Positions 7 through 59,851 of a stretch of DNA of 64,000 nt are shown here, piece by piece. The notes beneath the pieces were generated by a model. It worked only from the letters and a program-made list of their open reading frames with translations. It ran no database searches and was not told where the DNA came from. The position numbers were made by a program, and so were the translations under genes. This DNA is from Escherichia phage vB-Eco-KMB40. Each line of letters opens with the position of its first letter. Positions within the stretch are counted from its first letter, which is position 1. Where the stretch lies: the sequence record OR539220.1, one strand, 5' to 3'.

Positions 7-2184
7 TTAGGCCGCAAGGGCCTTCATAGTTTTGGCGATTTGGGAAACTTCATCATCACTTAAAGAGTTGCGATATCCGATGAAGTCGGAAACAATACGG
101 AATTTCTTGGTAAACTCAGCAACCATTTTATCACTGTTTTTTGAAGCATTATTTGATAATACATCAAAAAGATTAGTTACTGTCCAGATGTCATGACCGA
201 TGGTATCTTTTCCACCATTAAAATATACACCACGCAATGAACTAACTATATTAGCGAGTCGTGTATATTCTTCAGAAACTTCATCTGTACTGAAGTACTT
301 CATCATAAAATCTAGTTCAGGATACTTGATAATTTTATCAATATATCGTTGAGCTGAACTTGAATAACCTACGTACTTATCATAATCTACATCATCAAAA
401 GCATCTACATATAAATCACGCAAAGCTTCAAAAATACATTGGCACTGACCGAGTTCTTTTACCTTTTTCTGTAAAAGCGGACGAATAACATAAAATTCAT
501 TAATGCCAATAAGATTAGCCATACGAATCAAAATATTCATAGATGGATGACAGAGAGATGTAGTACCATCCATAGAGAAAATATCAGAACGATGCATATA
601 CGCTACATAACCAGTAATTTCATCTGCTTCTGACGTAAGTGTAAATAGTTCCTCTTTTTCCCAGCGCCCATCTTTAATTTCAAACTTAAATGCTGTAGCA
701 GCTTTAGGACGAGGAGCTTTACTTTTAACTATCTTTGGAATATAGCTTTTAACTAAAGCTTCAATTTCTGACAAATAATGAATGTTAACTTCATCACTTT
801 CAAACATCGCCATAATATCAGGAAGCAAATCAATCTGCGATTCTACTTCTGGATTAATAAACAGAAGACGCTCATTGTGATGAATATTCAAAGTGTTATT
901 AAATTCACTATCATCTAACGCATGTGCTAATCCACGGACAATATTAACACGATTTTTAATATTATCAATAACGATATTAATTTTTGTTGTATTGATACCA
1001 AACAGACGATAACTTGATGCAACGGCTGAAGTTTCATGACTTTGCTTAATGCGTTTCAGTCGAGGGTCAAGATTTACTTCATACACAACTCCTGCATTAC
1101 ATAACTTACTATCAGGTTCAAACATGCTCTGCATCTTTTTATATGACAGATTTTTAGTCGTGAATTTGACTGAATTACTAATCATATAATCTCGAGCAGA
1201 ATACCCCATCTTCATTAATTCGCGATATGTATGACGAGGAGATGTAGATTCTTTAAATCGTTTTACATCTTCATTAAATGCTTTCTCACTGAGTTCTTTA
1301 ACTCGTTCAATGATATTTTTACGAGTGCGATCATCTAGTGAAAGAGCCTCGCGAGATGGAGCAATATCAAGTGAACCCATTGGAAACTTAATGTAATTCA
1401 CTTCATTGCGAATGCTTAGCCAGTTACGGTCTCTAATAACACCATCGATAGGATAAACAATACCGCCATAGATAGCATATAATCCACCACGATCAGGCCA
1501 GTATCTTTCTGGATTTACACCATAATAATCATCAAAATCAGGAAAATAATCAATTTCGCGGTCAAGACCATTAATGATAGCCAAATCTTTGAACGGTCGC
1601 ATAATATAAGAAACTTCATAAGCAAAGTTTCTAAAGTCTTTTTCTTCAACTGGAACTACGATTTCAATACCAGTTTTATCATCTGGACCCATTTCTTTTA
1701 CGAATGTAGGTTTAATTTGTGGACCATCGCCATCCATGTAAGCTACATAACCACGAATTTCACCTTTATGATACGAAGTAATACTAAACGTATCAGTATA
1801 ACTAAACGGAGATTTAGAACCTAAACCAAATCCGCCAATAAAGTCATTAGATTCAGCCTTAGATGAACTGAAGTATGAATTATACAACCCAGGAGAATTA
1901 TCATCACCTTGAATATCAAAATCACTCATACCCGGACCAAAATCTCGACAAACAAATCGTGGGTCTAATCGTCCTGGAACTTGTATGATAAATTTTTCAG
2001 GATTTCCATTGAGAGCATGGGCATCAATCATGTTAGTAATTAATTCACGGACTACTGCGCGAATCTTGTTTGTATACAAATCAGATGACAGAATTTTAAA
2101 TACTTTAGGAGATGCTGTGATGCTAAATGCTTTTGATTTAGAACCATTACCAAGAATTGTTTCTTTTTCAGTGGTGATAATCAT
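7..2184 (-). CDS. rIIA: rIIA protein (725 aa)
   Basis: 725-aa ORF, same length as T4 rIIA, N-terminal ATPase-like region; followed by rIIA.1 and gene 39 as in T4. Confidence 0.9.
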
Positions 2185-2423: not shown

Positions 2424-2453
2424 ATTATACCACATCCTTGTGGTAAAGTAAAC
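2424..2453 (-). promoter_or_regulatory. early sigma70-type promoter (GTTTAC -35, TATAAT -10)
   Basis: minus strand GTTTAC at 2448-2453 and TATAAT at 2424-2429, 18 nt apart; upstream of rIIA.1/rIIA; 32 nt identical to promoter at 46641. Confidence 0.6.
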
Positions 2454-4270
2454 TACTGACTCATCCATTCTTTACGAAGGTCAGCATTATCTCCCATGAG
2501 CATTTCAAAAAGCTCTTTCCAGTTCTCAGGAAGTTTAACAACATCATATACTGGATTTTGAATCATCTCACGATATTCAGATTTTTCCAAAGAGCCAAGT
2601 CCCTTAATATAACGGATGCTATGTTTAGGTAGAGCATCTTTGGCACTCTCATATTCAGCGACTGTATAAAACCATTCTTGTTTTTTACCGACCTGAGCGA
2701 TGATTACAGGAGTTTTGACAAAACGAATTCGTCCTTGCTCAAACAATTCTGGCCAATTACTAAAAAATCCGAGCAAAGAAGGATAAATGCTTCCTAGACC
2801 ATCATGGTCAGCATCAGTCATAATAGCAATATTATGATAATTCAAGTTTTCAGCTTTTTCACCGAGAACTAATCCAGTGATTGCGCAAATATCAAATAGT
2901 TCTTTGTTTTTAAGCATATCTGCATAAGACATACCCCAACTGTTGAGAACTTTACCGCGCAATGGATAACCACCGTGAAGTTCTTTATCGCGAACATCAA
3001 TAAGATATCCGATAGCAGAATCACCCTCAGTCAAGAAAAGAGTAGTGTCAGCATCTTTACCACAAAGATTCGCTTTGATATGTTTATGAACCTTAGCTTT
3101 AGAAGCCTTTTTAGCTGCTTTAGTTTCTGCTGCTTTTTCTGCTGCCAATTTACGAGCCAAAGCAGCTTCAATAATTGGCATCAAAATTGCTTCATTATTT
3201 AGAATAGCACGTGAAATCTTTTTAGCATCAAGCTGAATATGACTACGGATTTCACCAAATGGAGAAGTCAAACGCTCTTTAGTTTGAGAATCAAATCGCA
3301 TGTTTTTCATATCACGAACAAACATAACGATAGTCAAACATTCTTTGACACGCGCTTTAGTTACATCAATTTTGAACTTACGTTTGATTTGTGGAATAAG
3401 GTCTTCACAAATATCATCCATAACACAGTCAATGTGATGGCCACCATTCTTAGTATGAATGTTATTGACGTATGTTAATTGACGAAATCCATCCGGTGAA
3501 CGACCAACCGCAATAGAACAATTTTCTTGTTCTTGAACAATAGCATGTTCATCATACTGTCGTGCATATTTCTTAAAATTGCCCTGAACCTTTTTACCAT
3601 TAAAGGTAAATTGAATATCAGGATAAACAACAGCAAGTGTCTGGAGACGATCTAATGTAATGTCAAGATAAACCTGAGATAGCTCATTAGTTTCAAATGA
3701 CATAAAATCAGGAATGAAAGTAACGCGAGTTCCTTTCCATTTTCCAGGAATATCTTCCCATGATTTATTTTCCATGCCATTTGAACAACGAACTACAATA
3801 TTATTTTGACCATCACCAGTTTCACCGACAAACATCACAGAAAAAATGTTTGTCAAACTAGAACCAACACCATTCATACCGCCGGTGACGCGTTCTTTAT
3901 CATCACCGAAGTTACCACCTGCTTTTGGAATAGTCCATGCAGCAACAGGACCAGGAATTTCTTCACCGGTAGGTGTTTTAACCATCGCTTGCGGAATACC
4001 ACGACCGTTATCTTCAACTGTTACTTGATTGTTTTTAATAGTAACATTAATTTTATTTGCGAATTTAAACTTAGTACGAATACCTTCATCTACTGAGTTA
4101 TCGATAATTTCATCAATAAGCTTAACAAGACCAGGTACATACTGAACACTTTCCCATTTACCAAACAGAAAGCGCTCATGCATTTCATTAGCAGAAGAGC
4201 CAATGTACATGCCACTACGCTTTTTGATATGTTCAATATCGCTCAGAATTTTAATTTCATTCTTAATCAT
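2453..4270 (-). CDS. 39: DNA topoisomerase II large subunit, unsplit (605 aa)
   Basis: GyrB-like ATPase motifs, N-terminus MIKNEIKILSDIEHIKKRSGMYIGS as T4 gp39; continuous ORF covers the part encoded separately by gene 60 in T4; track start at 4273 is GTG, ATG at 4270. Confidence 0.9.
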   Translation of the reverse strand: MIKNEIKILSDIEHIKKRSGMYIGSSANEMHERFLFGKWESVQYVPGLVKLIDEIIDNSVDEGIRTKFKFANKINVTIKNNQVTVEDNGRGIPQAMVKTPTGEEIPGPVAAWTIPKAGGNFGDDKERVTGGMNGVGSSLTNIFSVMFVGETGDGQNNIVVRCSNGMENKSWEDIPGKWKGTRVTFIPDFMSFETNELSQVYLDITLDRLQTLAVVYPDIQFTFNGKKVQGNFKKYARQYDEHAIVQEQENCSIAVGRSPDGFRQLTYVNNIHTKNGGHHIDCVMDDICEDLIPQIKRKFKIDVTKARVKECLTIVMFVRDMKNMRFDSQTKERLTSPFGEIRSHIQLDAKKISRAILNNEAILMPIIEAALARKLAAEKAAETKAAKKASKAKVHKHIKANLCGKDADTTLFLTEGDSAIGYLIDVRDKELHGGYPLRGKVLNSWGMSYADMLKNKELFDICAITGLVLGEKAENLNYHNIAIMTDADHDGLGSIYPSLLGFFSNWPELFEQGRIRFVKTPVIIAQVGKKQEWFYTVAEYESAKDALPKHSIRYIKGLGSLEKSEYREMIQNPVYDVVKLPENWKELFEMLMGDNADLRKEWMSQ

Positions 4271-4297
4271 CACTTATCCTCGTTTGGTTTCGGGAAT

Positions 4298-4322: not shown

Positions 4323-4340
4323 AAAGGCCCGAAGGCCTTT
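4323..4340 (-). terminator. intrinsic terminator hairpin (UUCG loop)
   Basis: AAAGGCC-cgaa-GGCCTTT perfect 7-bp stem, U-rich flank; right after stop of 4340..4600 ORF. Confidence 0.6.
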
Positions 4341-4600
4341 TATTTAAAACGGATAGTCGAATCCTTAAAGAACAGCCCAGAACATACTGTTCCTTCTACT
4401 TTCTGCCCAGTAGGTCCAATAGCACGAAATCCAGTATGCTGGAAATCATTTTCAGAGCAACCGAACCAATTATATCCAGTGATTTCAATATTAGTAAAAC
4501 CACTTGAAGACAAAACTTTAGTTGCATTATCAGCATCAGTACATCCTACTAAAGACACTACTAATACTAATGCTGCAATAGAACGATTAATATATTTCAT
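4340..4600 (-). CDS. predicted lipoprotein (86 aa)
   Basis: signal peptide with lipobox LVGC; in 39-cef interval. Confidence 0.5.
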   Translation of the reverse strand: MKYINRSIAALVLVVSLVGCTDADNATKVLSSSGFTNIEITGYNWFGCSENDFQHTGFRAIGPTGQKVEGTVCSGLFFKDSTIRFK

Positions 4601-4602
4601 AA

Positions 4603-4779
4603 TTACCCTTTAAGCAAGTCGTAAAATCCGCCATTCACATGCTTAGGAGCGGAAACTAACCGAATAGCAATCCGATGACAATCAGGACATACATCAGTAT
4701 CTCTTTCAGAAATTTTCTTGATTTTTTCGTATTCTTTTGCACAGTCTTTGGATTGACATTTATAATCATAAAGCGGCAT
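4603..4779 (-). CDS. zinc-ribbon protein (58 aa), not in ORF track
   Basis: MPLYDYKCQSKDCAKEYEKIKKISERDTDVCPDCHRIAIRL..., Cys pairs CQSKDC and CPDC; SD AAGGA before ATG at 4779. Confidence 0.5.
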   Translation of the reverse strand: MPLYDYKCQSKDCAKEYEKIKKISERDTDVCPDCHRIAIRLVSAPKHVNGGFYDLLKG

Positions 4780-4781
4780 AA

Positions 4782-5195
4782 TTATTCCTTAAAGTGAGCT
4801 TTCAACATCTGATACAAGGACCATGCCTGTTCATTATTTTCAATAGTAACTTTCATTACAGGGAATTTAGATGGATCAGTTATCGGTGCAGATTCTTCCT
4901 GCTCTTCAGCTGCCTGGTATGGATTTTCAACTTCATTAAAGAACTCAGCTTCGCTCGTTGAAAGCCAAATAAAGTCTTCATCCAAAATATCTTTACCAGA
5001 AGATAGTACTAAATTTCCAGTAGATGTCACAATTTTAGTAGGACGCCCGTAATAGTCAACATCTAAAATTTTAAAAGGTTCCATACCTAAACGGCGCGCA
5101 TAGATTCCGTTATCAGTATGGTCTTTAATAAAATTTTCTTGAGCTTGTTTATTTTTAAATTGATACCATTTATTAACTTCAAATTTAATAGCCAT
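4782..5195 (-). CDS. hypothetical protein (137 aa)
   Basis: ORF in 39-cef interval; no recognised motif. Confidence 0.5.
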
Positions 5196-12419: not shown

Positions 12420-12890
12420 CTAGCGATAAAAACCAAATTGACGATTAGCTTCAGCAATCTTTCTTTCTTCTTCGGACATTCTCCAGCGTAGTCCAACATC
12501 AAAATGAGCCCAGACCATCTTAACAAATGCATTTATATCTTTAATATCTTCAATAATGAATGTTTTACTTTTAAAAGGCTGACTCGCTAATTTAACTTTA
12601 TCATCTTCAAACAGGTCAAAAAGACCATATTCATGAGCTCTTTTATAGCCTTTAATAGTTAAAGCTTCAGAAGAAGAAAACGGTGAATCAGTATTCTGCA
12701 AAATATCTTCAGTATGCTTTATAATTAGAATAACATTTTCTGGATATTTTCTTTCTTTTATATCTTTAATTAAAAAATCCGGATTTTCTGCTAAAGGAAT
12801 AATCAATGAGCAATTTTTATCAAGCGTATTTACTGATTTACCTTCTTTGGACATAAATTCTATTGAATAGTGTTTTGCTACTTCAATCAT
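12420..12890 (-). CDS. hypothetical protein (156 aa)
   Basis: ORF in modB-soc cluster. Confidence 0.5.
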
Positions 12891-13047
12891 GTGATTTCCT
12901 TTTGCCTACTAATGGACCGTCGGGAATTTTGTTTTCCTGGATATACTTCTCATTTTCTTCCATCATTTTACTACCAATTTTAAGAAGCAAATCCATTGCT
13001 TCATTTGCTTTAGCTTTAGCCTCTTCTAACGTCATATCTTTGTTCAT
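12883..13047 (-). CDS. hypothetical small protein (54 aa), not in ORF track
   Basis: [21 protein letters not shown]...; start and stop overlap both neighbours. Confidence 0.4.
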
Positions 13048-13247
13048 GATTTATCACCATAGATGTCTCTCATCAATTTAAGCGCTGAGCGTTCTAATTT
13101 CTTTTCTTTCTCAGCACTAATCATTGATTTCATCCATTCTTCCGATTCATTCTGCATTTCTTTATTTGCTTGTTCAACCCAACCATCATCAATATACATT
13201 GAGTTTGGTCTACTGAACCATTCAAGCATCTTCTTCAGAACTTTCAT
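13044..13247 (-). CDS. hypothetical small protein (67 aa)
   Basis: ORF in modB-soc cluster. Confidence 0.4.
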
Positions 13248-14639: not shown

Positions 14640-14780
14640 TTACAATTTAGCGGCTTTCCAGAGTTGTTCAATAATCTCTTGGTCTATTTCTTTAGTTATT
14701 TCATTACGTAATAAAGCAGTAAGGGCTTTCGCCCTTTTCTTATTCAACTTTTTGAGTTGACGTTTATTTAAACGAGACAT
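14640..14780 (-). CDS. hypothetical basic small protein (46 aa), not in ORF track
   Basis: MSRLNKRQLKKLNKKRAKALTALLRNEI...; ATG overlaps gene 56 stop; occupies soc-56 interval where T4 has segF. Confidence 0.4.
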   Translation of the reverse strand: MSRLNKRQLKKLNKKRAKALTALLRNEITKEIDQEIIEQLWKAAKL

Positions 14781-21252: not shown

Positions 21253-22119
21253 TTATAACACAATAAATTTAGGCATAACTGCTATCGGATGAATAGCATT
21301 AAACTTATGAAATGCTTCTGATTTTTCTTTGCGCGAAACACACATGCGAAGAACCTTTAATGGCTCGTCTTCTTCACCCAACGATTTTCGTTTTTCGATA
21401 TTAGAAGTTTTCCAACGAGCTTGCTCTGGAAACTCTCTATTGATTTGCTCAAGCGCTCTATTATGTTTAGAATTACTACGAATTGAACTGCACCCGCCAG
21501 GAGCTTGTGCTTTTCCAGATACAACCAGATATTTGAACAAGGCCAAATGCGGATAACCTTGATTAATTAAATTGAGAAATGCATACATATCTTCGCATAA
21601 ATCAATTTTTCCATACCCAATTTGTTCTGTCGTAAGTTTTCCGAGGTCATACCATGTATTCGTGAATCCATATGAATTTTCACGATAATTACCCCAAGAT
21701 GAAGTAATTTTAAAAATAGGTAGACGAGCATGGCCATGATAATACCCGCAATCCATGGCATCTTCGACGTATTGAATCAATTCATAGAACTGTTCACGGG
21801 TTAATTGATTGACTTTATCTACACAACGACGGTCATCTCTTTTTCGCATTGAACTCATACGAATAGTAGTATCATCGTCAATCATCCAGATTCGTTGACC
21901 TGCATACATATCAGTAATTGCTTTACGAGTACCGGCAATTCCGTTTACATCATCAGGAATAGTTATAATTTTAGCTCTAGACCCATAGGCATCATAATAA
22001 GCTTTTTCTTCATGTTCACGCACTACAATATGGGGTTCATAATCAGTCGGAAACATATCAAGGGCAGAAACTGCCCCGACACGCTGATAACTTGGAATTA
22101 CGAATTGAATCATTTCCAC
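21253..22119 (-). CDS. GT-A-type glycosyltransferase at beta-gt locus (288 aa); possibly beta-alpha-glucosyltransferase
   Basis: between uvsX and 42 where T4 has beta-gt, but sequence unlike T4 beta-gt as recalled; DxD-like IDDDTT motif. Confidence 0.5.
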   Translation of the reverse strand: MEMIQFVIPSYQRVGAVSALDMFPTDYEPHIVVREHEEKAYYDAYGSRAKIITIPDDVNGIAGTRKAITDMYAGQRIWMIDDDTTIRMSSMRKRDDRRCVDKVNQLTREQFYELIQYVEDAMDCGYYHGHARLPIFKITSSWGNYRENSYGFTNTWYDLGKLTTEQIGYGKIDLCEDMYAFLNLINQGYPHLALFKYLVVSGKAQAPGGCSSIRSNSKHNRALEQINREFPEQARWKTSNIEKRKSLGEEDEPLKVLRMCVSRKEKSEAFHKFNAIHPIAVMPKFIVL

Positions 22120-22850
22120 TCACCTTTATAGTCTTTTTTCACAATATGAGTTTCGCCAGTATTCCACCAATGATCAACCAAGTAAAAATGACGAGAATAT
22201 ACATGAAGACTTCCAACATTCCATATAATAGAACCTGCTTTATACTGACGAGTTGAATCGCCTGCATTCAAATCAGATACTAATTTATCTAATACGTATT
22301 TTTGCCATGCATAATCATTACGGAATCCGAAGACCACGTCATTTGAGCGCATGCTTACTACTGCATTGACTTTCTTATCACGAATCAGGTACTGTACTGT
22401 ATTAGTACACATGAAATCTGACATACCATCTTTATTGTAGTCAAATTGCATGGATGGACGAGTATAAATCATGATACCACGTCGAGAATCAGGATTTTGA
22501 CCAAGTTCAGCTAAACACATATCATACTGGGCATAGTTATCTTCTGACCAGATAGCCCAGCCATAATTCGAGTTAATTTCACCTTTAGAAGATGCTACTT
22601 GTTGCCAAATCTTCGGTGTTTCACCCGGAATATCTTTAACGAACAAGCTCTTAGATTTATACCATTCAAGTTCACGCTGAATGTATTCATCATTAAGAGC
22701 GCCAAAAATAAACGGTTCATCTGCTATAAATGATGCGCCAATAATTTCAATAGTTTTAACGCCAGTTTTATCAACTACGAAATCTTTTTCTTTTAATGCA
22801 AGCCCCAAATGAAGACGGATTTCTTCAACTGTCATAGAGTCACTAATCAT
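22110..22850 (-). CDS. 42: dCMP hydroxymethylase (246 aa)
   Basis: 246 aa, thymidylate-synthase-like; matches T4 gp42. Confidence 0.9.
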   Translation of the reverse strand: MISDSMTVEEIRLHLGLALKEKDFVVDKTGVKTIEIIGASFIADEPFIFGALNDEYIQRELEWYKSKSLFVKDIPGETPKIWQQVASSKGEINSNYGWAIWSEDNYAQYDMCLAELGQNPDSRRGIMIYTRPSMQFDYNKDGMSDFMCTNTVQYLIRDKKVNAVVSMRSNDVVFGFRNDYAWQKYVLDKLVSDLNAGDSTRQYKAGSIIWNVGSLHVYSRHFYLVDHWWNTGETHIVKKDYKGEWK

Positions 22851-22857
22851 TTAAACC

Positions 22858-23007
22858 TCAATTGATACATTCATATTTAACTTGTAACAGTAATAAACCC
22901 CAGCCTAAAATAATAGTTGGAATCATAAGAGGAACCGTTACACTATAGTATATACTTATTATAATCATCAAGATTAAAAGCAACACTGCTATAATTTTGC
23001 TTTTCAT
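22858..23007 (-). CDS. small membrane peptide (49 aa), not in ORF track
   Basis: MKSKIIAVLLLILMIIISIYYSVTVPLMIPTIILGWGLLLLQVKYECIN; ATG overlaps imm stop. Confidence 0.4.
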   Translation of the reverse strand: MKSKIIAVLLLILMIIISIYYSVTVPLMIPTIILGWGLLLLQVKYECIN

Positions 23008-23255
23008 TCCTTCTCTCTGATGATAATTACCTGATTTGGTTGTGCAGACTTTTTAGTTTCACCCGCAATTGACCAAATAAATGTAATAAACCAACCAATA
23101 ATTGACCAGTTAAACAGTAAAGATGTGAAAAAGATTCCTACTGTCGATTTTGACCCACGCATCAAGGCGATAAACCATGGAAGCATGTATATAATAATAG
23201 CCAACACACCTGAAACTAAAACCATAAAAATTGAACCTGCTACTAAAGTTTCCAT
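23004..23255 (-). CDS. imm: Imm superinfection immunity membrane protein (83 aa)
   Basis: 83 aa, two TM segments, position after gene 42. Confidence 0.8.
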   Translation of the reverse strand: METLVAGSIFMVLVSGVLAIIIYMLPWFIALMRGSKSTVGIFFTSLLFNWSIIGWFITFIWSIAGETKKSAQPNQVIIIREKE

Positions 23256-31874: not shown

Positions 31875-32729
31875 TCACAATGAAGAAAATTCTTTAACTA
31901 AAGCCTGTAATGAAGCCTCTATTGGATATCCATTCTTAACTAACATTTTCCTAAACATCACATGTTTAGGACGATTATATGATATCCACAATTCATACAA
32001 TTTATCTTTATTATCCCAATGATAGCCTTTTCGTCGAGATGCTATATGAGCTTTTCTAATCTCCGGATTTTTCCAACTAGCAGCTACTGAATTTGATATA
32101 GCTATTTTATATTCAGGTTTTGATAAAGCAGCACGAACAGCCTTTTGGTGTTTAATTTTATTTTCTTCGTTATTAAACCATTCCCTTGAAGCCATTGAAA
32201 TTTTTTGTTTTGTTTTAAAATTATTTAATCTTTCTTTGTTATCTTTCCTATTTTTTGCTACTGAAAAATATTTTAATGCCCTTTCTCTAGCAGCATTTCT
32301 ATTTTGCGGATTTGAATAATACTGTTGAAGTCTTTTTGATATTGTGTCACTTACATCTTGTTTTATAAAACTATACTCAGCAGCTATTAAATCAACTTCG
32401 GCTAAAGATAAATTTTTATATGTTTTTCCTGACATCATTCTATTTAAAGCATTTAGCATTTTTCCATTTTTACCTTTTGCTAATAAGAAATGTGCTTTAA
32501 AATGATTAAAATGACTTAAATTAACTAAATTCCATGTAGATTTTAAATATTCAGGAAATATTGATTTAGGAAGCACGTGGTGTGCTTCCGTTTTACCTGG
32601 AGTTTTAACAGTTGAATTCATAGAAATAAAATTAATGTAAGACTTGGCGTCTTCTTCACTCAACGCTAATTTTTCAACTAATTCCTTTATTAAAAATTCA
32701 TCATTAATGTCAAGTTTAAAATTCTTCAC
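31875..32729 (-). CDS. free-standing HNH homing endonuclease (284 aa)
   Basis: HNH motif EAHHVLP...NLVNLSHFNHFKAH; lies between 46 and 46.1; starts with GTG overlapping 46.1 stop (GTGA). Confidence 0.7.
   Translation of the reverse strand: MKNFKLDINDEFLIKELVEKLALSEEDAKSYINFISMNSTVKTPGKTEAHHVLPKSIFPEYLKSTWNLVNLSHFNHFKAHFLLAKGKNGKMLNALNRMMSGKTYKNLSLAEVDLIAAEYSFIKQDVSDTISKRLQQYYSNPQNRNAARERALKYFSVAKNRKDNKERLNNFKTKQKISMASREWFNNEENKIKHQKAVRAALSKPEYKIAISNSVAASWKNPEIRKAHIASRRKGYHWDNKDKLYELWISYNRPKHVMFRKMLVKNGYPIEASLQALVKEFSSL
32695..32713. repeat. 19-bp direct repeat copy A (aattcatcattaatgtcaa) at 5' end of HNH gene
   Basis: identical to 32898-32916; both encode FDINDEF-type N-terminal codons. 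Confidence 0.8.
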
Positions 32730-32941: not shown

Positions 32942-33176
32942 CCTTAATACAAGATACAGCCATATCTCGTAATGATTTAGGTGTGTCATTATCTAAAATG
33001 TTGAAGTTAAAAGATACAGCCCAGTCAGTGCAGACTGTAACCTTTTTAATACAATTATCTTCAACCTCTAACGGTTCAAACCAATATTCAATAATTTCTT
33101 TATGCCCAATATCATCTTTTACTTCACATTCAAAATGCTGACTCATCATAACATTTTTAAATTCATCAAAAGTCAT
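32913..33176 (-). CDS. 46.2-position small protein (87 aa)
   Basis: ORF between 47 and 46.1. Confidence 0.45.
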   Translation of the reverse strand: MTFDEFKNVMMSQHFECEVKDDIGHKEIIEYWFEPLEVEDNCIKKVTVCTDWAVSFNFNILDNDTPKSLRDMAVSCIKDAYCEVFDI

Positions 33177-34192
33177 TGTGTTGCCTCTACATATAGCTGA
33201 TTTGCATATTGAATAAGTGCTTCGCGATCAGAATCAGTGATGTCTGGAATTGCATTAATGTATTCTTCCATCAACGTCTGAAGAGATTGAACTTCAACTT
33301 CTTCACTGTCATCTGACTCGACAGAGTTATCAATCTTTGACACAACTCGTAATGAATGCACAACTTTCTCTAGTTCAGATTCGAACTTCGTCAGATTTTT
33401 GTCTACTTCAGTTACTATAACACGTACTGATAGATTTGTAAAATCTTTATAGTCAATTTTTCCTTTAAATGGATAATGAATTCTACGATGCCAGGTAGTG
33501 TTGTTTGGAATAAATTCCATTCGTTCTGTTTCTGTATCAAACATCCAGAACCCACGAGGGTCATTCTCGTCACCGGCAGTTAGTGTCCATGGTGTCCCAA
33601 TATATCTGACGTTAGCAGCCTCAGAGATAGTATGGAAGTGACCAGACCACACCTCTTTATAAGTCTTAAGGAAATCAGGTTCAAGACCGTGAGATTTCAT
33701 TCCTTTATAAAAATAAAATCCATTCAGTTCCCAGTGACCAACACAAAAAGAAGCAGATGAAGTTTTGATGTGCTCAAGAATTTCACCAGTATTTTCTTCA
33801 CACATCCAAGGAATTAAATCAATTAAACATCCGTCAAAATCTACTGTAGTAGGCTTATCATATACTTTAACATTAGGATATTTAGCCAAAAGCTCAGTAG
33901 AGGCATTTGGAGTTAAAGTATTTTTAAAGTGCATATCATGGTTTCCTACAACAGTATGTAGGGTAATACCAGCATCATCAAGCATTTGAACTATTTCACG
34001 AGCGAACTCCATAGTTTTATGCGTGATTGCTTTTCGCACATCAAAAATATCGCCGTATTGAATCCATGTAGTAATTCCATTTTTCTTAGAATATTCTATT
34101 GCTTGTTTAATTCCATCCAACTGAATGGATTGAACCCACTCATCATCGGCTTTAACGCCTAAATGCCAATCACCTAAATTTAAAATTTTCAT
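33173..34192 (-). CDS. 47: recombination nuclease subunit, Mre11/SbcD-like (339 aa)
   Basis: phosphoesterase motifs DWHLG, GNHD; 339 aa as T4 gp47. Confidence 0.9.
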   Translation of the reverse strand: MKILNLGDWHLGVKADDEWVQSIQLDGIKQAIEYSKKNGITTWIQYGDIFDVRKAITHKTMEFAREIVQMLDDAGITLHTVVGNHDMHFKNTLTPNASTELLAKYPNVKVYDKPTTVDFDGCLIDLIPWMCEENTGEILEHIKTSSASFCVGHWELNGFYFYKGMKSHGLEPDFLKTYKEVWSGHFHTISEAANVRYIGTPWTLTAGDENDPRGFWMFDTETERMEFIPNNTTWHRRIHYPFKGKIDYKDFTNLSVRVIVTEVDKNLTKFESELEKVVHSLRVVSKIDNSVESDDSEEVEVQSLQTLMEEYINAIPDITDSDREALIQYANQLYVEATQ

Positions 34193-34329
34193 ATATCAAG
34201 AACCGTCATTGAAATGCAAAATAAAATTATTGAAATAAATCCATCTGGAGTGCTAAAGAACCCAATCCAACATGCTCTAGTGAATAGATAAAATGCGAGA
34301 AAAAGTATCACATATCCAAGAAATATCAT
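34189..34329 (-). CDS. small membrane peptide (46 aa), not in ORF track
   Basis: MIFLGYVILFLAFYLFTRACWIGFFSTPDGFISIILFCISMTVLDI; stop overlaps gene 47 ATG; SD GGAG. Confidence 0.4.
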   Translation of the reverse strand: MIFLGYVILFLAFYLFTRACWIGFFSTPDGFISIILFCISMTVLDI

Positions 34330-34352
34330 TATATCAAACTCCGTATAAAGCT

Positions 34353-34370
34353 AAAGGGCCGAAGCCCTTT
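34353..34370 (-). terminator. intrinsic terminator hairpin after a-gt, possibly bidirectional
   Basis: AAAGGGC-cgaa-GCCCTTT perfect 7-bp stem with U-rich flanks on both strands. Confidence 0.6.
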
Positions 34371-35571
34371 ATTTTGTAATAATGTCAAACTGTTCTTTAA
34401 AGCAGAAGCTTGAATCTTGATGCTGATACAAAAATTCATAAGCTTTTTCGCGTTCGCGGTCATAAAGAGTTCGGTCAGATGACAGTTCTTTAATACGTTC
34501 AAATGTTGATTCCATGTCATTTTCATCAAACCAAATGATACCGCTATCATGCGAGGTCAAAGGAGTATTATCAACACGGAATTTTAAATTTTCGCCAGTA
34601 GATTTCCAAAATACCGGAATTGTTCCACATGCACCAAGCTCGAGATGAGTATATTCTAAAGAACGTTGTAGATATTTTTTATCCAACTTACTCAACTGAT
34701 AACCAAAACCGGATTTACTCATACGTTCAAGCATTTCGCTATTTACATAACGGTCAAGAATTTGCGTTGGCAAATTAGGAGCAATTTTAATTTGGTCTAC
34801 TTGATGAAGACGATAATACTCGTATGGAATTCCTTTTTCTTTAATAGGAATGAACGCTGGAGAACGTTCCAGACCTTCCATAATAGTACTTAGTCCTGCA
34901 GGTTTAAGATGTTTTTCATGAAAATCAAACATCTGATAAAAACCTTTCCATGTGGTCGTACGACCAATCCAACGGTTGATATTCATGTTAATTTCAGAAA
35001 CATCTTTCCAGTAGGTTGACCGAACCTTCGCAATATCCATAGGAGGCTGAAAGTTATATACTGTCGGTGCTTCTTCAATATCATCAAACAGAGAAACTGT
35101 TTCAGGATACCATTCTTTCATCAGAACTTTATTAAAATCACCATTATCAGAATGGCTAAAAATAACATCAGCTCGACGAACAGTTTCTTCTAATCCCAAA
35201 TTTCGACGCAAAGAAAGAGAAGAATGGTCATGTTGATAAACTACAACACGAACAGAAGGTTTAATGTTATCAATAATTTTTTTATAGTTATTAATAGTGT
35301 CTTCTTCAACCGAAGTAGCAGGAACTGAATTGATAATTAGAATATCACAATCATTTACCAGCTTAAGTGTTTTATCATATTCTTTTGCCAATAAAACCGG
35401 AATTGAAAATGATTTATAATCATGCGCGCAATTACGAGTAAATGATTTATCTTTAGCATAAACCAAAGTTACTTCATGACCATTCTTAATAAACCAATCA
35501 CGTTGCTCAAGAGAAAATTTAGTTACACCACAACCTTCAAGACCTCGAGCCATAAAAATACATACTTTCAT
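34369..35571 (-). CDS. a-gt: alpha-glucosyltransferase (400 aa)
   Basis: N-terminus ICIFMARGLEGCGVTKFSLEQRDWFIKNGHEV and 400 aa as T4 alpha-gt. Confidence 0.9.
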   Translation of the reverse strand: MKVCIFMARGLEGCGVTKFSLEQRDWFIKNGHEVTLVYAKDKSFTRNCAHDYKSFSIPVLLAKEYDKTLKLVNDCDILIINSVPATSVEEDTINNYKKIIDNIKPSVRVVVYQHDHSSLSLRRNLGLEETVRRADVIFSHSDNGDFNKVLMKEWYPETVSLFDDIEEAPTVYNFQPPMDIAKVRSTYWKDVSEINMNINRWIGRTTTWKGFYQMFDFHEKHLKPAGLSTIMEGLERSPAFIPIKEKGIPYEYYRLHQVDQIKIAPNLPTQILDRYVNSEMLERMSKSGFGYQLSKLDKKYLQRSLEYTHLELGACGTIPVFWKSTGENLKFRVDNTPLTSHDSGIIWFDENDMESTFERIKELSSDRTLYDREREKAYEFLYQHQDSSFCFKEQFDIITK

Positions 35572-42411: not shown

Positions 42412-42897
42412 TCAAGTATTGTAAAACATTTGATTCAATCGCTTATATTGCCGAATCTTTTGGTCAGAAAAAGAAATTTGGGTTTCAAGCCATTCAATAT
42501 ATTCTGCCGCAGCTTGCATCAAATTTCCTTCATAGCCATCGTTATTTTCTTGTGCAGCTAATTTAGCTAATGCGTATGAAATACGTTCACCTTGAAAATC
42601 AGCTTTAGGCTTCTGAACAACTTGATTAGTTCGCTCTACAACTTCTTCAATTTCGCCATTTTCAACGGATTCAGTATTCCATAAGCACCAATACGTAATT
42701 GGCTTATCATAGATATTAATAATCTTTCCGTCGGAAAGTTCAATTTCAATAATTCCAGTATCAGGCTCTATATCATCTTCACATTCTTTTGCAAGTTCAC
42801 GAACTTTAAAGACAGCACCTGCGCTAAGTTCCGGCCAGTAATTACACAGCCCTGTATCAGCACGATTAATTCTAAACCACTTATCTACTGTAATCAT
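42412..42897 (-). CDS. pin: PinA, Lon protease inhibitor (161 aa)
   Basis: 161 aa from ATG at 42897 with SD GGAG; position after gene 49; track start is TTG. Confidence 0.6.
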   Translation of the reverse strand: MITVDKWFRINRADTGLCNYWPELSAGAVFKVRELAKECEDDIEPDTGIIEIELSDGKIINIYDKPITYWCLWNTESVENGEIEEVVERTNQVVQKPKADFQGERISYALAKLAAQENNDGYEGNLMQAAAEYIEWLETQISFSDQKIRQYKRLNQMFYNT

Positions 42898-42937
42898 GTC
42901 CCATCTCCATATCAATTAAGTCATTTATCGTTGGTTC

Positions 42938-42967
42938 ATTATATACTGTTTCTTCATCAGTGTAAAC
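42938..42967 (-). promoter_or_regulatory. early sigma70-type promoter
   Basis: GTTTAC at 42962-42967, TATAAT at 42938-42943; upstream of pin. Confidence 0.5.
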
Positions 42968-43020
42968 CGGTTCTTCCGGCTCTGGCTCTACAGTTTCCCA
43001 TCTAGCCGCCCACCAAGGTT

Positions 43021-43341
43021 TTATAGCGTAATCCATTCTCGTACTGTCTGAGTTACTACACGTTCATGGGGCTCTACTAGTTCAACAGTCGGAACTGCAT
43101 AATACCAGTCAGAATGATAAGAACCTGACCGAGATTCATTTACAGCCACATGTACATTATGTTTTGGACTAAAGTAAACACACTGACGATATTGACATTT
43201 ACCATCTTGCACCCAGTCTTCTATTTCGACAGGTTTAAGATAATCGGAAAAATCGAAATCATAGTTTTCCGAAAATGCATCATGGTCTTCAATGATTTCG
43301 CTCAGAACTGCATCAACATCTAATTTATTTTCAATAGTCAT
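43021..43341 (-). CDS. hypothetical acidic protein (106 aa)
   Basis: ORF between nrdC and pin. Confidence 0.45.
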   Translation of the reverse strand: MTIENKLDVDAVLSEIIEDHDAFSENYDFDFSDYLKPVEIEDWVQDGKCQYRQCVYFSPKHNVHVAVNESRSGSYHSDWYYAVPTVELVEPHERVVTQTVREWITL

Positions 43342-53138: not shown

Positions 53139-53748
53139 TCACTTTGAAATCATAGTTGGAATGACAGAATCAAGATAATTCTTTAGCGCAATAGCTTCGT
53201 CTTTGGTAAATGTGACAATATGTGCTCGAGAATCATCATTTTGGCGAACAAGTACGACATCGCCATCTTCATAAGAAGTCTTGACATCCAAAGTCGTAGT
53301 ATAGTTTGCAGCTACTGGATTAATAATGCTAGCACCGCGATCTTTAGCCCATTGAAGTTTAACCTTTTCGGGTGTTTCGACTGTTTCAGATTCCAAGAAT
53401 TCTTTCACCTTGGCAACGAATGTTGCCCAATTGTTGATAGAAAGACACATAAATTCAGTTTCAATAGGCAACGAATGTTGCCCAATTGTTGATAGAAAGA
53501 CACATAAATTCAGTTTCAATATTACCGCCGTAAAGGCCACGATAAAAACGAACTTGGAGGTCGCCTGTAATATTAGTTACACCGGTAACTCCTGAGGGAG
53601 CATAAGATAAAATCGCAGCCAGTTCCATAGGAAGAATAGTAATACTATCGTCTTCCTGCGTCAGAACGTATACATTATCACGTTTTTCGATAACCAGGTC
53701 ACCGAACAAATCAGTTGTTTCAATTACAGCTTTCATATTATTTACCAA
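53139..53748 (-). pseudogene. gene split by 55-bp tandem duplication frameshift (tracks 53461..53748 and 53139..53540)
   Basis: both ORFs encode IETEFMCLSINNWATFVA from the two repeat copies; removing one copy gives a single ORF of about 185 aa. Confidence 0.7.
53412..53521. repeat. perfect 55-bp tandem direct duplication (53412-53466 and 53467-53521)
   Basis: ggcaacgaatgttgcccaattgttgatagaaagacacataaattcagtttcaata present twice head to tail with no mismatch. Confidence 0.9.
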
Positions 53749-53923
53749 TTAAAGTTTCAATATAAGAATCAAGATTTACTTTAGCTTCTTCCATAAGAAT
53801 TTTGTATTTAATCTTGTTAGCATGTCCGGAGAAAGCTGATTCATCAATAATTGTTGATGTATGAACAGCTCTACTATACGTCTCAATTAATTCTCTTAAT
53901 TTAAAAGCCTGCTCACTTGTCAT
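53738..53923 (-). CDS. hypothetical small protein (61 aa)
   Basis: ORF overlapping start of disrupted gene. Confidence 0.4.
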   Translation of the reverse strand: MTSEQAFKLRELIETYSRAVHTSTIIDESAFSGHANKIKYKILMEEAKVNLDSYIETLIGK

Positions 53924-54027
53924 TACATACTCCTTTGAACCATATCAATAATGTTATTCACCAGATTATAAGTAAACATTGGGTAATTATATTGAATCAT
54001 CACATACACAACAAACAAAACTTTCAT
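53923..54027 (-). CDS. possible hydrophobic leader peptide (34 aa), not in ORF track
   Basis: MKVLFVVYVMIQYNYPMFTYNLVNNIIDMVQRSM; SD AAGGAG; first ORF after promoter at 54056. Confidence 0.3.
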   Translation of the reverse strand: MKVLFVVYVMIQYNYPMFTYNLVNNIIDMVQRSM

Positions 54028-54087: not shown

Positions 54088-54261
54088 TTAAATGGCGTTT
54101 TCAATAAAATTCTGAAGCTTTGTGTGAGCATCAACCATGATTTTCATTTCTTCTTTGGCGAAAGCTGTACCTCTTTCCCGAGAAGAACATTCATAGTCAG
54201 AAACTGCATTAGCATATTCTTCAATTAGTTTCATTAAAAACATCTGCTTTTCAGTTTTCAT
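54088..54261 (-). CDS. hypothetical small protein (57 aa), not in ORF track
   Basis: MKTEKQMFLMKLIEEYANAVSDYECSS...; SD AGGTGG. Confidence 0.4.
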   Translation of the reverse strand: MKTEKQMFLMKLIEEYANAVSDYECSSRERGTAFAKEEMKIMVDAHTKLQNFIENAI

Positions 54262-54445
54262 TATTCCACCTAATCATTTCAAGATATTGAACTAACTTAG
54301 CTTTAGATTTATCCAAATCCTTTTTAGCTGTTTCTATACCGTCGTATGAATATCCTTCACAATGCTCAACTGCTAATTGATATGAATCTATTTCAATATC
54401 ACGTGCTAATTTAATGATTTTTTCAAACTGTTCATGTGTTAGCAT
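54251..54445 (-). CDS. hypothetical small protein (64 aa)
   Basis: ORF in pre-rI cluster. Confidence 0.4.
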   Translation of the reverse strand: MLTHEQFEKIIKLARDIEIDSYQLAVEHCEGYSYDGIETAKKDLDKSKAKLVQYLEMIRWNNEN

Positions 54446-54447
54446 AC

Positions 54448-54687
54448 TTAAACTCTCGTATTATGATCGATAATTTCATCAAGAAACATATCTAACGCTT
54501 CTAAAGCATTATCAACTTTAGTTTCAAAGTCTTTAATGCCTTTATTCGAAATACCCGATGAATACCAAGCAAAGTCAATCAGCTCTTCATCTGCTTTACG
54601 AATTGAAGCCACTAATTCCTTGATTTTATCTGCTTGCTCTATACTAATCATTATTCCACCACATATGACAGAGAGAATATTGCACAC
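54448..54687 (-). CDS. hypothetical small protein (79 aa)
   Basis: ORF in pre-rI cluster. Confidence 0.4.
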
Positions 54688-56469: not shown

Positions 56470-56655
56470 TTAAAGCGTATTCACATAAGCTATTAATTCA
56501 TTTTCTTTCTTATCAAACCGATCAGCAAATTCTTCCTGCTGTTCGGGAGATAGCGGGCCGTATTCATCATAAAAGGTGTTTGCTTCTGTATGCTCATCTA
56601 GAAGTTCATGGATAAGCCCAAACAATTTATCTTTTTGTTCTTTACTCAGACTCAT
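56470..56655 (-). CDS. hypothetical acidic small protein (61 aa)
   Basis: ORF upstream of tk. Confidence 0.4.
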   Translation of the reverse strand: MSLSKEQKDKLFGLIHELLDEHTEANTFYDEYGPLSPEQQEEFADRFDKKENELIAYVNTL

Positions 56656-56825
56656 ATATTAATTTCCAGGAGTTTTAAAATAATTCGCTTTTGCTTAAAT
56701 ATTTCCATAGTTAAATGACCAGTATCTTTTTGACCGATTCCAATGGCAAAACCTTTATTAACAGCGAGTTCAATTAAATTATCAAGCTCACGTAACACTT
56801 CGTATTGTAACTCAAAACTATTCAT
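56652..56825 (-). CDS. hypothetical small protein (57 aa), not in ORF track
   Basis: MNSFELQYEVLRELDNLIELAVNKGFAIGIGQKD...; ATGA overlaps at both ends. Confidence 0.4.
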   Translation of the reverse strand: MNSFELQYEVLRELDNLIELAVNKGFAIGIGQKDTGHLTMEIFKQKRIILKLLEINI

Positions 56826-57034
56826 TTTGGTTTACCTTCTTTAACGAAATCTGGATAAGGATAAAATCCCGAATAAAATCCTTCACCTTTATGATTGATG
56901 CATCCTTTATTAGAACAATAGCACCAATAATCAAAATCACAAGCCATTTCATCGTTGCATAAAGCAAAAACAACCGGCCATTTACACTTTTCACAATGAG
57001 CATTTTTAAGAATACTAGTTTGGCTCATAACCAT
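56822..57034 (-). CDS. Cys-rich small protein (70 aa)
   Basis: multiple Cys/His (CEKCKW...CYCSNKGCINHKGEGF). Confidence 0.4.
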   Translation of the reverse strand: MVMSQTSILKNAHCEKCKWPVVFALCNDEMACDFDYWCYCSNKGCINHKGEGFYSGFYPYPDFVKEGKPK

Positions 57035-57237
57035 GTAACCTTTAAGCAGTATTCTTCTACATGTTGTTTACGACCTTTCTTATCAATAAAGGTATATTCA
57101 ACGAATGTTCCAATGTAGTCTTTATCTACATCATGTGGACTATTAATTGGACATTTAGTACGGCAAATGCGTTCCCATTGACGAATAATTTCCACTTTGT
57201 TTTTAGGATCAAACGGATGTGGGTAATGTACTTTCAT
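57025..57237 (-). CDS. hypothetical small protein (70 aa)
   Basis: ORF in tk-regB cluster. Confidence 0.4.
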   Translation of the reverse strand: MKVHYPHPFDPKNKVEIIRQWERICRTKCPINSPHDVDKDYIGTFVEYTFIDKKGRKQHVEEYCLKVTWL

Positions 57238-59371: not shown

Positions 59372-59637
59372 TAGTATTTTTCCTCTGGTTGGAACACTGC
59401 GCGACAAGCCCACATACTGGCTTCTTTGAGTTTCGTTTTAGCAATAGTTAACTGATCGAGGCTTTCGGCGTAATTCTTCGCGAGTTCATCATCTTCACAG
59501 CTATCAAATGCTTCCCAAAATTCATCGTATAAAGCATCAAAGATAAGTCCTAAACGAACTTCAGCGTCTTTAATAGCATTTACTTTACCGATTTTTTCGT
59601 CGGTATGTGGCTTATAACCTTTAATATCTTCAATCAT
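59371..59637 (-). CDS. acb2: vs.4-position protein, possible Acb2 cyclic-oligonucleotide sponge (88 aa)
   Basis: ATG at 59637 with SD GAGGAAG; second ORF upstream of regB; identification from recollection of T4 Vs.4. Confidence 0.4.
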
Positions 59638-59851
59638 ATTTGACTTCCTCACCAGTACATAAATCGTATTCAACTAAACGAATAGGTTCATGAATGCCAT
59701 ATCCCTGAACAGAAATTTCTGTAGTAGGATAAATTCCATTAATATCACCCATGTTCCATGCTTCGTTAAATTGCTGTTCGCCTGAATTACTAAACCATTC
59801 GGCGAAAGCATTTAGCACATCTTCAGAACCTTCAATAATTATCTTTGCCAT
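59630..59851 (-). CDS. hypothetical small protein (73 aa)
   Basis: ORF in vs cluster. Confidence 0.4.
   Translation of the reverse strand: MAKIIIEGSEDVLNAFAEWFSNSGEQQFNEAWNMGDINGIYPTTEISVQGYGIHEPIRLVEYDLCTGEEVKYD

Follow-up and report, generated by a model that had tools for sequence, protein, structure and literature searches.

Seven small minus-strand ORFs hidden by a 60-aa threshold in the early-gene region of a T4-like Escherichia phage

Proteomics often fails to detect proteins that are very small or hydrophobic. In phage T4, the transcripts of genes 39.2, modA.4, 47.1 and mobD.2a are all classed as early; the proteins ModA.4, gp55.4 and gp49.1 were detected, and gp39.2, gp47.1 and MobD.2a were undetected in the T4 time course (PMC9697503 Table S2). 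For phage T2, a passage in PMC5931544, citing Belle et al., reports soc.1 and soc.2 in the slot between gene 56 and soc. Our literature search with these gene names gave one T4 transcriptome/proteome study and the brief mention of soc.1 and soc.2, and otherwise nothing relevant. Ribosome-profiling or small-protein studies of T-even phages were not found in this search.

The DNA analyzed here (the window) is a stretch of 64,000 nucleotides from Escherichia phage vB-Eco-KMB40 (OR539220.1). It represents about 64 kb of a Tequatrovirus (T4-like) genome from rIIA onwards, and the 5-kb and 25-kb segments that we compared are about 96-97% identical to hundreds of Tequatrovirus genomes, none of which was an exact match. 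The T4 gene order is kept from rIIA, which opens the window, to past gene e. Nearly all genes lie on the minus strand, where 116 large ORFs together occupy 93.5% of the window.

Several differences from T4 were observed in this background. Gene 39 is one fused ORF, and the T4-specific 39/60 split is missing. The mobA remnant, 60.1 and the translational bypass region of gene 60 are likewise missing from the window at gene 39. The ORF at 31875 is flanked by gene 46 and the 46.1 homologue, at a place where T4 has no gene, and its positional match in phage CM8 is a CDS annotated as a homing endonuclease. Together with the missing segF, this ORF suggests a mobile endonuclease gene set unlike that of T4. 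Furthermore, T4 vs.5 (58 aa) aligns to the window at 59630..59851 in two frames, one for residues 1-17 and the other for residues 17-58. The ORF at this place starts from the same ATG as vs.5, and the two differ by a frameshift.

Seven ORFs below the threshold and their junctions

The first-pass annotation had listed seven minus-strand ORFs as missing from the ORF track. Their coordinates and lengths (58, 54, 46, 49, 46, 57 and 57 aa) proved to be exact, and all seven start with ATG (Table 1). Under the default cutoff of 60 aa these ORFs are missing from the track, and at a cutoff of 40 aa all seven appear. Thus, their absence is purely due to the 60-aa threshold. In a census of the gaps between large ORFs, each of the seven was the largest same-strand ORF of its gap and nearly filled it. 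The list was correct in these seven entries and incomplete beyond them: at least two more T4-annotated genes shorter than 60 aa are present in the window and had been left off, namely 49.1, which is 100% identical to T4 49.1, and mobD.2, which is 91% identical to T4 mobD.2 over all 34 residues.

Table 1. Small ORFs of the window and the features around them. Unnamed ORFs are called in the text by their first position (for example, ORF 14640).
Feature	Position	Strand	Length (aa)	Context and junctions
rIIA	7..2184	minus		opens the window
gene 39	2453..4273		606	one fused ORF
39.1 homologue	4340..4600	minus	86	
39.2 homologue	4603..4779	minus	58	between goF and 39.1; overlaps nothing; 2-nt spacers (TAA-tt-ATG) on either side
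goF	4782..5195			
modA.3	12420..12890			
modA.4	12883..13047	minus	54	ATGA with srh; 8-nt overlap with modA.3
srh	13044..13247			
ORF 14640	14640..14780	minus	46	basic protein; gene 56-soc hypervariable slot; TAATG with gene 56 stop
hairpin	14721..14736	minus		inside ORF 14640
gene 42	22110..22850			
ORF 22858	22858..23007	minus	49	two hydrophobic segments; ATGA with imm stop; upstream of gene 42
imm	23004..23255			
ORF 31875	31875..32729		284	between gene 46 and 46.1 homologue
gene 47	33173..34192			
47.1	34189..34329	minus	46	predicted membrane protein; ATGA at gene 47 start
49.1	42881..43036	minus	51	off the earlier list
mobD.2	53923..54027	minus	34	off the earlier list
mobD.2a	54088..54261	minus	57	full length; DUF7438; 11-nt overlap with mobD.3
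mobD.3	54251..54445			DUF7438
DUF7438 ORFs (five)	53738..53923, 54088..54261, 54251..54445, 54448..54651, 56470..56655			including mobD.2a, mobD.3, mobD.4 and tk.2 homologues
ORF 56652	56652..56825	minus	57	ATGA at both ends; neighbours 56822..57034 and 56470..56655
ORF 56822	56822..57034		70	beside the tk.3 homologue
tk.3 homologue	57025..57237			
ORF 59630	59630..59851		73	same ATG as T4 vs.5

Start signals had been ascribed to all of these ORFs, and they were found. In six of the seven, a Shine-Dalgarno-like motif (AAGGA, GGTGA, GAGGT, GGAG, AGGTGG or GAAGG) is located 4-9 nt upstream of the start codon, and in ORF 22858 an AAGGA abuts the ATG. Each ORF had also been described as starting or ending in an ATGA or TAATG overlap with a neighbour. 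As shown in Table 1, five of the seven ORFs have such an overlap with a real neighbour; 39.2 and mobD.2a are the two exceptions. The only partner in the TAATG of mobD.2a is an unsupported 33-aa ORF, and the upstream TAATG partner of 47.1 (34329..34550) lies inside a-gt as a spurious frame. The stop and start codons are arranged as would be expected for coupled pairs, with five 1- or 4-nt overlaps, one 11-nt overlap and one case of 2-nt spacers.

These small genes are packed into strings of genes on the same strand, and they would probably be translated from polycistronic early or middle transcripts. Initiation could occur at their own Shine-Dalgarno sites or through termination-reinitiation at the overlapping stop and start codons. 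The five ORFs with 1- or 4-nt overlaps might also be reached by ribosomes that terminate on the upstream gene.

Conservation and selection across the set

The seven ORFs exist, are conserved, are under purifying selection and belong to protein families. The biochemical roles that can be assigned to them are putative. The first-pass annotation had pointed to the T4 annotation and to reading-frame conservation across T-even genomes as checks, and both came out in favour of the ORFs. Four of them correspond to the T4 genes 39.2, modA.4, 47.1 and mobD.2a. ORF 22858 is 96% identical to an ORF that is unannotated in the T4 reference (NC_000866) but has a protein entry in UniProt. The two others are annotated in other T-even phages: ORF 14640 in wV7 and ORF 56652 in RB14 and RB32.

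For the frame comparison, DNA of relatives was taken from T4, CM8, wV7 and IMG/VR contigs. Among the IMG/VR loci, the goF anchor gave 7, and the gene 42, gene 47 and tk anchors gave more. The frames were intact in every relative examined. The most divergent intact copies had identities of 79% (39.2), 64% (47.1), 49% (mobD.2a) and 57% (ORF 56652); modA.4 and ORF 22858 were sampled to about 92% identity only in this set. At the protein level, all seven ORFs match PHROG families, with E values from 2e-11 to 2e-37. The matches to phrog_14392, phrog_3452, phrog_2681 and phrog_6693 are full length and cover nearly the whole profile. Two of the seven, 39.2 and mobD.2a, pass Pfam gathering cutoffs. 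Translated searches covered 50,697 phage records, and for the five ORFs searched (39.2, ORF 14640, ORF 22858, mobD.2a and ORF 56652) most of the matches were full length, and most were annotated as a CDS in their records.

The pN/pS and codon-position tests use a DNA sample drawn from the roughly 400-900 database copies per ORF. In pairwise comparison of the window with close relatives (at least 90% identical), pN/pS was about 0-0.35 for six of the seven ORFs. For ORF 14640 there were too few variants for this calculation; its only same-length relative in this sample is from wV7. When variable sites were pooled by codon position, the first, second and third positions had 21, 20 and 73 sites, respectively, a third-position excess with P = 2e-11. 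The same-length homologues used in the codon-position test contained no indels. In addition, we shuffled each gap 5000 times, and an ATG-ORF of the claimed length appeared in 4 to 97 of the shuffles (0.08-1.9%).

Individual loci compared with T4 and its relatives

The modA.4 and 47.1 genes are the simplest cases. T4 modA.4 is 100% identical to the window protein over 54 aa and has the same position between srh and modA.3 with the same overlaps. T4 47.1 is 100% identical over 46 aa, in the same place between a-gt and gene 47. In the nucleotide sequences, both differ from T4 by a few synonymous changes only. ModA.4 is a soluble 54-aa protein; it falls in phrog_2681 (E = 2e-37), its pN/pS is 0-0.17 and its variable sites by codon position are 4/4/21. 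The 47.1 protein falls in phrog_6693 (E = 2e-31), and its 47-aa homologues at 64-82% identity give pN/pS of 0.21-0.31.

The product of the 39.2 homologue had been called a zinc ribbon. This descriptor holds, because the protein has four cysteines and scores 42.4 bits with Pfam PF09723 (Zn_ribbon_8, FmdB; E = 7e-11), above the cutoff of 34.4. The match aligns residues 1-36 to profile positions 1-34 of 41, and the protein belongs to phrog_1076. The cysteines C8, C13, C31 and C34 have the arrangement CX4C...CX2C, that is, two pairs that could together hold one zinc ion. The C31-C34 pair does not vary in the alignment, and every full-length member retains C8 and C13. Matches were obtained in 875 phage records, 861 of them near full length, and the exact 58-aa sequence is present on 404 contigs, where it is named zinc-ribbon or FmdB-family protein. 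The pN/pS is 0-0.21, and the variable sites by codon position are 9/5/28.

We also predicted the structure of 39.2 with AF2. The alignment was shallow, with only 10 proteins from the word-indexed homologue search; the best model had a pLDDT of 72.8, and the other four had values of 41-44. The best model has four short strands (residues 2-8, 16-20, 28-30 and 37-40), and these predicted strands are consistent with a zinc ribbon. A PDB sequence search with 39.2 gave no match, and a Foldseek search of the model against the PDB gave nothing significant (best E = 0.24). The top Foldseek entries were the small zinc-ribbon-like modules RbpA, YdjO and MCM. Because the best fold E value is 0.24, the likeness to the sigma-binding RbpA and YdjO is a lead and not a result. 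The label 'FmdB-like transcriptional regulator' carried by this protein is annotation, not evidence. Our best guess, with low confidence, is that 39.2 may be a small binding module, stabilised by zinc, whose target is a macromolecule of the host or the phage in early infection.

T4 39.2 has the same position between goF and 39.1 and is 91% identical to the window ORF over 44 aa. However, in the T4 reference (NC_000866) it is 45 aa long and is ended early by a 1-nt insertion, compared with 58 aa in the window. Similarly, mobD.2a of the T4 reference has 38 aa after a 1-nt deletion, compared with 57 aa in the window. The T4 copies are located at L001, 5665..5839 (39.2) and L002, 21996..22165 (mobD.2a). 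In both genes the T4 codons past the lesion stay conserved in the shifted frame; for example, the last 14 aa of the window 39.2 align to the shifted T4 frame. Moreover, a T4-labelled UniProt entry holds the 58-aa 39.2 protein, and the T4 record KJ477686 has an intact, unannotated 58-aa frame. The truncations are either lesions of a laboratory strain or errors of the reference sequence. Because the T4 reference tolerates truncated 39.2 and mobD.2a, both are therefore dispensable in the laboratory.

The neighbouring 39.1 also differs from the T4 reference. The window homologue has an N-terminal signal peptide and the lipobox LVGC, and it is therefore predicted to be a lipoprotein. The 39.1 copy of the T4 reference has another codon in place of the Cys codon, and a 1-nt insertion breaks its frame. 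Therefore, the annotated T4 39.1 (65 aa) begins at an ATG further inside the gene and does not include the signal.

In the mobD-tk region, mobD.2a matches Pfam PF24219 (DUF7438) with 56.2 bits (cutoff 25), and its residues 1-55 align to positions 1-56 of the 57 in the profile. It is a member of phrog_2758, RB51 has the identical sequence under the name mobD.2a, and 640 of its 642 matching phage records are near full length. Its homologues at 49% identity give pN/pS of 0.51-0.58, with synonymous sites saturated. The locus is shared with T4 mobD.2a, which closely follows mobD.3 in the direction of the coding strand. The window contains five DUF7438 paralogues of about 60 aa (54-66 bits), and T4 tk.1 and tk.2 match the family too. 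This set is a tandemly amplified small-protein family.

ORF 56652 is a small protein common in T-even phages and absent from T4. It falls in phrog_3452 (E = 1.6e-33), and it matched 438 phage records, all 438 at full length; the exact sequence is on 418 contigs, and pN/pS is 0-0.36. Loci of RB32 and RB14 are 91-95% identical to it, over the RB32ORF110c/111c/tk.2 annotations. Proteins of the RB32ORF110c/111c type are placed between the tk.2 homologue and a Phage_zn_bind protein, as in the window. A tblastn search with ORF 56652 gave no match in T4, and no Pfam family, DUF7438 included, matched it. By position the ORF could be taken for tk.2, and this was rejected because T4 tk.2 aligns instead to 56470..56655 at 54%. 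The ORF is likewise not homologous to T4 tk.1. The adjacent ORF 56822 matches Pfam Phage_zn_bind (PF23895) with 101 bits, and ORF 56822 and ORF 56652 together are an insertion relative to T4.

ORF 22858 and 47.1 had been described as membrane peptides. The hydrophobicity stands (GRAVY 1.6-1.7, with two hydrophobic stretches in each), and the membrane location is predicted. Most simply, both would be small inner-membrane peptides. The T4 counterpart of ORF 22858 is located at NC_000866 26230..26376, between gene 42 and imm. It lacks a CDS annotation, and UniProt names it 'Uncharacterized 5.6 kDa protein in Gp42-imm intergenic region'. ORF 22858 falls in phrog_3610 (E = 5.7e-26) and matches 744 phage records, 484 of them near full length. 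It is annotated as hypothetical in AR1, RB3, RB27 and RB55; its homologue lacks a CDS in the RefSeq records of T4 and T6 and in PP01, CM8, Lv5cm, HY03, SG1 and VR25.

The reading frame of ORF 22858 has exactly 49 codons in 11 of 11 distinct DNA variants. Across these 11 variants the ORF, taken alone, has no third-position excess. By codon position its variable sites number 11/3/8, a depletion at the second position (P = 0.035). The replacements are exchanges among I, L, V, F, A and T, and the first-position changes are among I, L, V and F. This codon pattern is that expected where hydrophobicity is constrained, as would suit a sequence with these hydrophobic segments. The ATGA overlap with imm is found in the window and in five Tequatrovirus contigs. 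Gaprivervirus VR25 (locus L154, about 350..490) has an unannotated 46-aa homologue with a 7-nt overlap with the imm stop. The motif VTVPxMIPTLIL.W..L.LQ.K(Y/F)EC(I/F)N is kept in VR25, and the cross-genus match covers residues 20-49 only, at about 63% identity. The VR25 homologue overlaps imm though its downstream gene is not gene 42; therefore, the ORF travels with imm.

From linkage and conservation only, ORF 22858 might be proposed to function in the membrane as a partner or modulator of Imm, the superinfection-immunity protein. We consider this proposal unlikely, because in at least one T4-like contig (L017) there is no such ORF between imm and gene 42, and imm abuts gene 42. If ORF 22858 were nevertheless an Imm partner, its omission from the T4 reference annotation may be why it was overlooked.

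Alternative explanations and comparison with existing annotation

Very probably, the seven ORFs are true protein genes from the early region of a T4-like phage, and they were dropped by the 60-aa threshold. We compared this explanation with two others that concern the whole set. The ORFs are short, and some or all of them could be chance open frames in spacers that are not translated; however, each ORF length is reached in less than 2% of the gap shuffles. Three of the T4 homologues were undetected as protein (PMC9697503 Table S2), and ORF 22858 and 47.1 are unannotated in many genome records, whereas no relative examined, in sets of up to hundreds of records, has a broken frame, and two ORFs lie above Pfam cutoffs. 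ORF 14640, with 33 near-identical copies only, and ORF 22858, without a third-position excess, would also suit chance frames. Against this stand pN/pS values well below 1 among close relatives, the pooled third-position bias (P = 2e-11) and the protein motif of ORF 22858 kept across genera. Chance frames are thus an extremely improbable explanation. Alternatively, the small ORFs could be mere spacers that hand ribosomes to the downstream gene, with functionless peptides. This idea draws on the 1- or 4-nt stop/start overlaps with neighbours in five ORFs and on the truncated 39.2 and mobD.2a tolerated by T4. Purifying selection at the amino-acid level, with pN/pS of about 0-0.35 in close relatives, would not be expected of pure coupling spacers. 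Nor would Pfam-grade families, conserved zinc-ligand cysteines in 39.2 or a cross-genus motif in ORF 22858, and we regard the spacer explanation as very unlikely.

A further alternative concerns ORF 14640, which is the weakest coding case of the seven. It might be a decaying remnant of a mobile element at a homing-endonuclease site, or mainly an RNA element. The 56-soc slot is hypervariable: T4 has segF, a homing endonuclease, where the window has the 46-aa ORF; T2 has soc.1 and soc.2 according to the passage in PMC5931544; and in CM8 the slot is empty. A tblastn search against NC_000866 found no T4 homologue of ORF 14640. A 66-aa protein of another T-even contig resembles it in the N-terminal region only, with 49% identity over 43 aa. 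Its coding sequence contains a hairpin (AAGGGC-GAAA-GCCCTT, a perfect 6-bp stem with a GAAA tetraloop) that could be an RNA stability or processing element. These features, and a variation too small to gauge selection, would fit a remnant or an RNA element. On the other hand, ORF 14640 has a GAGGT Shine-Dalgarno motif 5 nt upstream and the TAATG with gene 56, its length occurs in about 1% of the gap shuffles, and it falls in phrog_14392 (E = 5e-25). The 43-44 aa relatives of the CLB_P2 type, at 83-85% identity, keep the frame; when these two proteins are aligned, a gap of one residue distinguishes them. In wV7 the protein AEM00692.1, in the same slot, is 98% identical with one non-synonymous difference. 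Matches were found in 33 phage records, in a search where the filter masked residues 1-26, and the word-indexed homologue search gave 3 proteins. The earlier description as basic is right (pI 10.5, 13 K+R). Taking both sides together, we consider the remnant or RNA-element explanation rather improbable, and a coding gene is preferred for ORF 14640 as for the others.

With the ORF threshold at 60 aa, at least nine real genes of the 64-kb window stay hidden, and therefore the 'intergenic' gaps of the window should be treated as coding. The seven ORFs themselves are already known: all are in public protein databases and PHROGs, and four have T4 names. Because every one is already recorded there and nothing is a new kind of element, we rate the set as already known. 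The main value of this analysis is quality control, and the current understanding of T4 biology is unchanged. Two points concern annotators. The imm-coupled peptide is inconsistently annotated across T-even genomes, and 39.2 and mobD.2a of the T4 reference are truncated by frameshifts compared with nearly all relatives.
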